Virus record (IMG/VR): IMGVR_UViG_3300044294_000233
Source of the DNA: a virus
Taxonomy: Duplodnaviria > Heunggongvirae > Uroviricota > Caudoviricetes
Reading direction: 5' to 3' (one strand)
Length of the DNA stretch: 64,000 bases
The position numbers were made by a program, and so were the translations under genes. The notes beneath the pieces are model-generated. The model saw only the letters and a program-made list of their open reading frames with translations, made no database searches and was not told the origin of the DNA. Below are positions 32,976 to 33,873 of this stretch, piece after piece. Position 1 is the first letter of the stretch. Every line of letters starts with the position of its first letter.

Positions 32976-33136
32976 TGTTCCACAAATTCTTCTTCTGGCT
33001 CGGCCAGCAGTGGCAGAAGACCAAGCGGTACTACAACCTGAAGGACAGGTCGCAGACGCACCCGCCGGCCCTTGTGTGGATCGGCGGGGGGATCGCCCTC
33101 GTCGCCCTCTTCCTCCTACTCCGATGGGTGTTCTGA
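32976..33136 (+). CDS. Small membrane protein (single transmembrane helix).
   Basis: MFHKFFFWLGQQWQ...ALVWIGGGIALVALFLLLRWVF, starting 3 nt after the previous stop. It sits inside the longer annotated frame 32699..33136. Confidence 0.3.
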
Positions 33137-33873
33137 TGTCCACAGAAGACAAATACAAGCAGGTTTCATCCTGCGAGACGATGGGACTCGGCGGCGTCGG
33201 AGTGAAGATCCTCGTCAAGTTGCCGGACGGGGTCGCACTCTCGGACGCAGAAGACGCCAACGCAAAGAACGTCGGGTACGACCTGTACCGCCGGCTACAG
33301 AACTTCGTCATTCAATCCGACCCGAAAGAGATCGAGTTCGCGAAAAAAGAAGGGGAAGAACTCCTCGCTCTTTTCGGCGACGAGAAGATCTTCGCGGAGC
33401 CGACTCACAACGAATACTCCTCGGACTCGCTGCGGCCGTGGTTCATCGTCACGACCAAGATCGGTCGCATCAAGATCGGCTGGCGTAAGCGGGTGATCGT
33501 GATCGACTGGTCGGATTCGACCAATAAGGGCCGCGCCGTCGATCTGTTCGCCACCGACGACGTGACCAAAGACCTGCACATGATCCACGCATGGGGCTAC
33601 GAGAAGGCCAAAGAGTACCTTCAGGTACTGTTGGGCCTGTCCGAACCCCAACGTCCATTACCACAAGAGCCGTTTGCTGATTTGCTGAATCAGTGTTCCG
33701 TGAGGCTTCGGAAAGTGATTGATCGAATCGGAATCAAGAACTGGAATGAACTGCTCGAACGAACACGCGAAGACCTTCTCGCAGAAGTGGGTTTCGCCGC
33801 AGGATGCCTCGCCGAACTTGAGAACCTGCTCGTTAAGTTTAAGCAGGTTCTCAAAACCCGTTCGCGTCGTTAG
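33136..33873 (+). CDS. Protein with a C-terminal RNA polymerase alpha-CTD-like helix-hairpin-helix domain.
   Basis: The ATG at 33136 overlaps the previous stop (ATGA). The C-terminus LLNQCSVRLRKVIDRIGIKNWNELLERTREDLLAEVGFAAGCLAELENLL aligns to alpha-CTD [48 protein letters not shown]. Confidence 0.45.
   Translation: MSTEDKYKQVSSCETMGLGGVGVKILVKLPDGVALSDAEDANAKNVGYDLYRRLQNFVIQSDPKEIEFAKKEGEELLALFGDEKIFAEPTHNEYSSDSLRPWFIVTTKIGRIKIGWRKRVIVIDWSDSTNKGRAVDLFATDDVTKDLHMIHAWGYEKAKEYLQVLLGLSEPQRPLPQEPFADLLNQCSVRLRKVIDRIGIKNWNELLERTREDLLAEVGFAAGCLAELENLLVKFKQVLKTRSRR

Follow-up and report, generated by a model that had tools for sequence, protein, structure and literature searches.

An RNA polymerase alpha-CTD-like module joined to a conserved phage domain in an apparent large tailed phage

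The stretch of DNA analyzed here (the window) comprises 64,000 nucleotides of the IMG/VR virus record IMGVR_UViG_3300044294_000233 (Caudoviricetes). [quoted passage not shown] Profile and fold evidence agree on that assignment. The open reading frame (ORF) is intact on the plus strand, from an ATG at 33136 to a TAG at 33871-33873. The gene call of the Joint Genome Institute (JGI) begins at an in-frame ATG four codons upstream, at 33124, and yields a product of 249 aa (P0001); six JGI metagenome contigs, of up to 253,983 bp, encode this identical protein. The annotation overlooked the N-terminal 165 residues, which are the conserved core of the protein. The parts of the gene are the following.

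33136..33873, plus strand: complete ORF, 245 aa plus stop, with the alternative in-frame ATG at 33124
33136..33639, plus strand: N-terminal alpha+beta domain, residues 1-168, of a phage family, with the motifs PW(F)xVTT, GxIKIGWRKRV, (E)DVTK and IHAW..EKA.EY
33640..33690, plus strand: Pro-rich linker, residues ~169-185, GLSEPQRPLPQEPFADLLN, the least confident stretch of the model
33691..33843, plus strand: alpha-CTD-like HhH domain, residues 186-236, in which R190 corresponds to R265 of Escherichia coli alpha
33844..33870, plus strand: basic C-terminal tail, ..QVLKTRSRR in the sequence, which extends the last helix

Relationship of the C-terminal domain to RNA polymerase alpha

The motif on which the assignment had been based (SVRL...RTREDLL...G..G.L.EL) is found at residues ~188-232. 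The top Pfam match of the target is PF03118 (RNA_pol_A_CTD), with 15.8 bits for the whole protein (E = 0.012) and 18.8 bits for the isolated C-terminal region, hereafter the tail (E = 0.0014); both fall below the gathering threshold of 23.8 bits. That threshold is exceeded by the only full-length homologue clusters, P0007 and P0008 (37.4 and 37.8 bits), whose identity to the target is 42-44% across 96-98% of the target's length. When the three tails were combined into a profile and searched against 177,635 PDB sequences, solely RNAP alpha chains were retrieved at an E value of 0.2 or less (best, 1.7e-8), and hhalign matched the tail-bearing family to a true RpoA with an E value of 4e-5 over 53 columns, aligning only the tail. 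Pairwise phmmer with the window tail alone gave no alpha-CTD match among the PDB sequences, which indicates that the window copy is divergent. A second profile, built from 273 alpha-CTD-like domains, matched a single ORF among the 827 that the six frames of the window contain, namely the target (residues 186-236; 35.7 bits; E = 2.6e-10); these domains came from other proteins and were fetched using a profile that contained the window tail, and the test is not fully independent.

The predicted structure of the tail is a compact helical HhH fold that superposes on solved alpha-CTDs. Its domain was modeled with a pLDDT of 81-88, and linker residues 171-180 with 66. The linker of P0007 and P0008 is four residues shorter than that of the target, and an LP..F motif is common to both. 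A profile match and a structural match to alpha-CTD thus both exist, with the PF03118 score of the protein itself still under the threshold, and the comparisons of sequence confirm the resemblance of residues ~186-236 to alpha-CTD as real. The tail might instead be a SAM-like (sterile alpha motif) module for interaction or oligomerization, forming N-domain oligomers or docking on another protein of the phage, and unconnected with DNA and RNAP. Pfam SAM_2 does match P0007 (E = 0.0068), the DNA-contact residues are poorly conserved, and many alpha-CTD-like modules stand in tandem beside tetratricopeptide repeat (TPR) scaffolds, which is a protein-interaction setting. Nevertheless, the sequence profiles are specific to alpha-CTD, as the exclusive recovery of RpoA chains from the PDB at an E value of 0.2 or less illustrates; identity in the structural alignments was 25% with alpha-CTD versus 7-12% with the top-scoring SAM matches, and the invariant arginine of the SVR motif is the DNA-inserting residue of alpha-CTD. 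We regard a SAM-like role as quite unlikely.

To compare individual positions, the tail was mapped to E. coli alpha numbering, using a reference sequence checked against the PDB. The residues retained are R265 (R190 in the target), T285, L289-L290, L300 and E302; P0007 and P0008 retain R265 and G296. The patch contacting CAP is altered (E286 to R, V287 to E), and a clear counterpart of the sigma patch (D258, D259, E261) is absent from the tail. The target shares the domain-linker-CTD layout of RNAP alpha (PDB 1z3e_B and 1lb2_B) and differs from it in being phage encoded and in adjoining non-transcription genes. Pfam gave no match in the target to the alpha N-terminal domains (PF01193 and PF01000), and a phmmer alignment extended across the N-region contributed no score. 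Because it lacks the alpha N-terminal domain, the predicted protein is not an RNAP alpha subunit.

Alpha-CTD-like modules are found in many other proteins. A profile search of a clustered library of 1.84 billion representatives retrieved 3,327 proteins carrying them (E ≤ 0.001), with multi-repeat proteins and proteins combining TPR repeats with two CTD-like modules as the top scorers. Among the 150 top matches, 148 proteins were new, and just one of these had an alpha N-terminal domain. The 273-domain profile was drawn mainly from those 150 matches, and the tail fits this mostly non-RpoA profile better (35.7 bits) than the Pfam alpha-CTD model (15.8-18.8 bits). The non-RpoA modules have the consensus LSvRsrncL...LLaiknFGetsL and, like the window tail, have an F where E. 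coli alpha has L295 and have lost K298. They occur in uncharacterized metagenomic proteins, as TPR-plus-two-repeat arrangements or in up to 13 tandem repeats, whereas the window holds a single copy on a phage-specific N-domain. Recent copying of the tail from the alpha-CTD of a host rpoA is thus unlikely; as judged from its sequence, it is an alpha-CTD-type HhH module reused outside RpoA, on an uncharacterized phage domain.

These observations bear on the proposal, made in the first-pass annotation, that the protein mimics alpha-CTD. Such a decoy would titrate the partners of the host domain (UP-element DNA, class I activators, sigma region 4, NusA AR2 or Spx-like proteins) and so reprogram host transcription during infection. 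The fold and the profile match are genuine, the equivalents of R265 and T285 are retained, and the succession of linker and CTD imitates the architecture of alpha. Against this, the residues contacting the UP element, CAP and sigma are mostly replaced, the non-RpoA profile gives the tail its higher score, and a large conserved N-domain would be superfluous in a decoy. The tail is probably not a faithful decoy of the host alpha-CTD, and we consider titration of this kind unlikely. The host domain is a known target of phages, since Alt and ModA of T4 ADP-ribosylate it; to our knowledge, no phage has been shown to deploy an alpha-CTD-type domain of its own. Phage phiKMV encodes Rac, which cleaves the host alpha-CTD (PMC7552054), and gp67 of phage G1 blocks it (PMC3694059).

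The N-terminal family and the distribution of the tail

The N-terminal domain presumably carries the main activity of the protein. A homology search retrieved 402 proteins, nearly all of 160-180 aa and covering only the region of residues 1-168. The family is present in 77 IMG/VR viral contigs, many of them of 100-620 kb, and in cultured phages that include jumbo phages of Caulobacter and Xanthomonas and the 56-kb Xylella phage Salvo, where the gene lies among arrays of small unidirectional genes without known function. The profile of this unnamed family ("WRKR/HAW" domain) matches residues 1-168 of the target with an E value of 6e-65. Six residues are invariant (W102, G110, G115, R117, H151 and Y161) and five nearly so (P101, W116, K118, R119 and W153). 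The conservation of W102, G115-W-R-K-R-V120, T144, H151-A-W153 and Y161 suggests that they mark a defined active or binding site. The domain was modeled with a pLDDT of 92-98 over residues 21-160 and of 83-87 over residues 1-20, and its predicted alpha+beta topology runs from two strands through a helical hairpin and a four-stranded meander to a further strand and a helix. Neither Pfam nor PHROGs had a family for 107 members, 5 long-form members (described below) and 5 variants with N- or C-terminal extensions; the profile of the domain found no match among PDB sequences, and Foldseek found no significant match in the PDB and BFVD.

Two comparisons could cast the target as a phage transcription factor, in which an N-domain that binds DNA or another factor, like that of TfoX/YgaC or like the MotA C-terminal domain, would act together with the tail as an activator or coactivator, in the manner of T4 MotA or TfoX/Sxy. 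TfoX has been described as combining a YgaC/TfoX-N-like domain with an HhH domain whose superfamily includes alpha-CTD (10.1101/284836), and the layout of TfoX/Sxy (PF04993 plus PF04994), an alpha+beta N-domain followed by an HhH C-domain, is analogous to that of the target. In addition, an HTH_17 gene comes after the orthologue in one related locus (L001). The likeness to TfoX/Sxy is one of analogy only: hhalign gave probabilities of 4.7% for the N-domain and 0.4% for the tail, with sensitivity limited by a shallow alignment of 18 Sxy sequences, all from Enterobacteriaceae, and there were no Pfam TfoX matches. The "double-wing" C-terminal domain of MotA (PDB 5jlt_A and 6k4y_M) gave the N-domain a fold score in the gray zone that unrelated folds equaled, without sequence similarity. 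Together with the low hhalign probabilities for TfoX/Sxy, the acidity of the N-domain and the lack of any Pfam, PHROG or PDB-sequence match speak against a transcription factor, which we consider very unlikely.

The family also has a long form of 340-400 aa, in which the core of the domain lies behind a region of ~250 aa. This region carries the motifs PWYDTKEGI, LNEF..LGRY.LD.CGN, CP.CG..W.I.NC and H..CN, with C127, C130, H242 and C245 invariant, and the long form showed no Pfam match, no PDB match by profile and no conserved gene neighbor. The long form was found at variable positions in loci L015-L042, L080, L088-L090, L093, L095, L100, L103, L104 and L114. Some copies lie on contigs of metagenome-assembled genomes (MAGs) of candidate phyla radiation (CPR) or DPANN organisms together with cellular genes, such as a translational GTPase in L015, L024 and L025. 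In L016, a true rpoA lies 1.8 kb upstream of the long-form gene; found in 1 of 35 long-form loci, this neighbor was judged coincidental. With that exception, a split-gene layout, with an alpha-CTD-like domain in a gene adjoining tail-less relatives, was not found in 126 loci. A MAG contig of Candidatus Omnitrophota (JALNZI010000006.1; 92,863 bp) appears to be the same sequence as an IMG/VR viral contig that is exactly as long (loci L012 and L059), and, if so, the pair is an example of a phage contig within a MAG bin.

The tail is rare in the family, being present in just three protein clusters (P0001, P0007 and P0008) among ~400 members. Among all the loci gathered, those of the window phage and of the P0007 phage (L001 and L002) were the only ones to bear it, P0008 being known as a protein alone. 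Pattern scans for the tail in IMG/VR and the JGI metagenomes revealed no further tail-bearing relatives, scanning with the entire protein recovered none but tail-less relatives, and a word-index search with the tail alone gave no candidates. The window itself holds no paralogue of the target and no further alpha-CTD-like domain.

Two genes border the target closely.

32975..33136, plus strand: upstream gene for a 53-aa hydrophobic (membrane) protein, whose stop shares one nucleotide with the start of the target (TGATG)
33870..34361, minus strand: convergent gene of 163 aa, which forms the 3' boundary of the target, its stop codon overlapping that of the target

Since the stop codons overlap, the target has no 3' intergenic space and an intergenic terminator is impossible; a scan for promoters and terminators around the gene revealed nothing above shuffled expectation. 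Genes of 52-53 aa hold the same upstream position before the orthologues in L001 and L004. The wider gene order is common to the window, L001/L002, L004 and L005/L006: a giant protein, a major-vault-protein-like (MVP-like) protein, the small membrane protein, the target, a convergent operon (163, 84, 490 and 160 aa), a CCA-adding enzyme and HAD_SAK_1. At this very position in L004, the closest orthologue of the target, P0002 (169 aa), has no tail; it ends exactly at the start of the convergent gene, which there abuts the end of the N-domain. The orthologue in L005 is likewise tail-less.

In a rough neighbor-joining tree of the N-domains, the window protein groups with the tail-less P0002 and P0003, and P0007 and P0008 with the tail-less P0011, so that the tail-bearing proteins are not monophyletic. 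The tails of the window protein and P0007 match each other with 26 bits, no closer than they match unrelated alpha-CTD-like modules, and the P0007 tail is nearer the B. subtilis alpha-CTD (35 bits) than the window tail. There may have been two gains of the module at one and the same gene end, or else an ancestral module was lost several times and diverged fast in the window lineage; the shared LP..F motif of the linker slightly favors a common junction.

This patchy distribution would also suit an evolutionary passenger, that is, a mobile module at an indel-prone gene end that contributes little and is being lost. The nearest relatives lack the tail, the window copy is strongly diverged and below the Pfam threshold, and changes in gene content cluster at the gene's 3' end, with two extra genes in L001 and others in L005. 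Set against these points are the intact frame, the predicted fold with its pLDDT of 81-88, the conserved hydrophobic core and SVR motif, the identity of the protein on the six contigs, and the recurrence of this class of fusion on unrelated phage proteins. The chance that the tail is a mere passenger seems slim.

The N-domain of the target is 64% identical to that of L004, versus 85-91% for seven of eight flanking genes and 76% for one short gene. With L001, the target shares 47% identity and the flanking genes 60-85%. Eight flanking genes were scored in L004, the small membrane-protein gene not being counted. Within the syntenic block the target diverges fastest, which fits a host-interaction gene and is typical of the phage-host interface. 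Such divergence would be in keeping with a decoy as well, and yet the absence of the tail from the closest orthologue and from ~400 family members marks it as dispensable in evolution, which counts against that explanation.

A putative tether and its parallels in other phages

Two other phages, both cultured, encode comparable fusions. ORF34 of Morganella phage Mecenats66 (L010, 2147-2710) joins a P22 NinX/DUF2591 domain to PF03118 (24.6 bits). Goe8_c00050 of Bacillus phage vB_BmeM-Goe8 (L126, 1551-2183), a protein of 210 aa annotated as "RNA polymerase subunit alpha," has an alpha-CTD-like tail that retains R265, N268, C269, G296 and S299. Like the target, each consists of a small phage domain without known function followed by an alpha-CTD-like tail. 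Both genes lie among small accessory or early-type genes, that of Goe8 in the region of the genome end. Their N-domains are unrelated to that of the target, and the hhalign alignments extend little past the tail. Of the Goe8 and window tails, that of Goe8 is much nearer the host alpha-CTD, and its retention of nearly all DNA-contact residues favors the decoy explanation to the extent that mimicry may exist in some phages. The recurrence of such fusions on unrelated phage proteins argues for their utility. Literature searches for phage-encoded alpha-CTD or PF03118 found no study of any such protein. Other records labeled as phage also match the alpha-CTD consensus; most of them look like bacterial rpoA in mislabeled records. 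One that was checked, MT835508.1 (L011), has a full-length RpoA ORF in which the alpha N-terminal domain is complete; an rplQ-like gene comes next, and most of the others are short and unannotated.

We propose that the target serves a large uncultured phage as an accessory protein built of two modules. The first, module 1 (residues 1-168), the conserved alpha+beta domain that elsewhere stands free at ~165 aa, would hold the core function, and module 2 (residues 186-236), the alpha-CTD-type HhH domain on its flexible Pro-rich linker, would be a targeting add-on. Through the R265-equivalent arginine, adjacent basic residues and the basic tail, module 2 could contact the minor groove or the backbone and so tether module 1 to DNA. 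Less probably, it would tether module 1 to a partner that recognizes alpha-CTD-type domains. With either tether, module 1 would come to lie at or near the transcription apparatus or the nucleoid. We favor this reading because the arginine is retained, further basic residues and a basic C-terminal tail are present, and such tails recur on unrelated phage proteins; the region of residues 171-245 has an isoelectric point (pI) of 9.6 and a charge of +4. We give the module a probability of roughly 40% of acting as a tether to DNA or the transcription apparatus, and both the binding and its downstream effects are inferred.

Several observations weigh against a tether. Five of the six residues of the DNA-binding "265 determinant" of E. 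coli are replaced (N268 by K, C269 by V, the hairpin glycine G296 by A, K298 by G and S299 by C), and the core of the tail (residues 180-238) is electrically neutral. The AlphaFold2 model of the C-terminal region was built on just three sequences. Mild acidity marks the N-domain (the median pI of the family is 5.7), and the folds that it matches are diverse, with weak scores. Finally, P0002 does without the tail, and its loss in the nearest relatives could mean that the tail contributes little.

A bolder possibility is that phage host-takeover proteins have repeatedly and independently acquired alpha-CTD-type modules as an "address tag," which would deliver the attached domain to promoters or RNAP. 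In the present case, an uncharacterized domain, enzyme-like or inhibitor-like and common in huge phages, would have received the tag, possibly on two occasions. Independent gain is hinted at by the tail-bearing proteins, which are not monophyletic in the N-domain tree, by the mutually distant tails (26 bits) and by the occurrence of such tails on three unrelated phage N-domains. We hold this generalization to be speculative and rather improbable. If it were true, phages would have a new class of factor for hijacking transcription, one constructed from a domain derived from RNAP. If the tail binds UP-like DNA or the partners of alpha-CTD, the fusions of the target, Goe8 and Mecenats66 would represent a simple way to aim effectors at promoters; if it is a generic DNA tether, they would be a case of ordinary domain shuffling. 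The N-domain family is large, spread across huge phages and outside Pfam and PHROGs, and the rare fusion partner is among the few clues to its function.

The phage carrying the gene

The gene content of the window suggests that it comes from a large tailed phage. The window encodes fibers with PKD domains, a P2-I-like baseplate protein, a VgrG-like spike and a protein of 2,599 aa, as well as an AAA ATPase; no tRNA genes were found in it. Downstream of the target lie genes for an enzyme of the CCA-adding/poly(A) polymerase family (37097-38647, plus strand) and for a HAD_SAK_1 ("Swiss Army Knife" RNA repair) protein (39092-39769, plus strand). Both are kept in L001, L004 and L005, which suggests that they form a tRNA/RNA repair module.

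The MVP-like gene lies just upstream of the target operon (30114-32476, plus strand) and matches MVP_shoulder (E = 7e-21) and Vault_3. Compared with its 864-aa orthologue in L004, it is broken: residues 1-99 are encoded at 30114-30410 and residues 176-863 at 30410-32461, in different frames, and residues 100-175 have no counterpart in the window. A deletion combined with a frameshift could account for the interruption, as could an assembly error or a split gene. There is an earlier report of viral MVPs (bioRxiv 10.1101/2023.11.10.566534).

The same phage encodes an ADP-ribosylglycohydrolase (62527-63657, minus strand; PF03747; E = 2e-73). R265 of alpha is the residue ADP-ribosylated by T4, and its equivalent is the sole DNA-contact residue that the target retains; we mention a link between the two in this phage as a mere thought. 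A LAGLIDADG homing endonuclease with C-terminal helix-turn-helix domains is encoded within the tail and baseplate gene module (9955-10974, minus strand).

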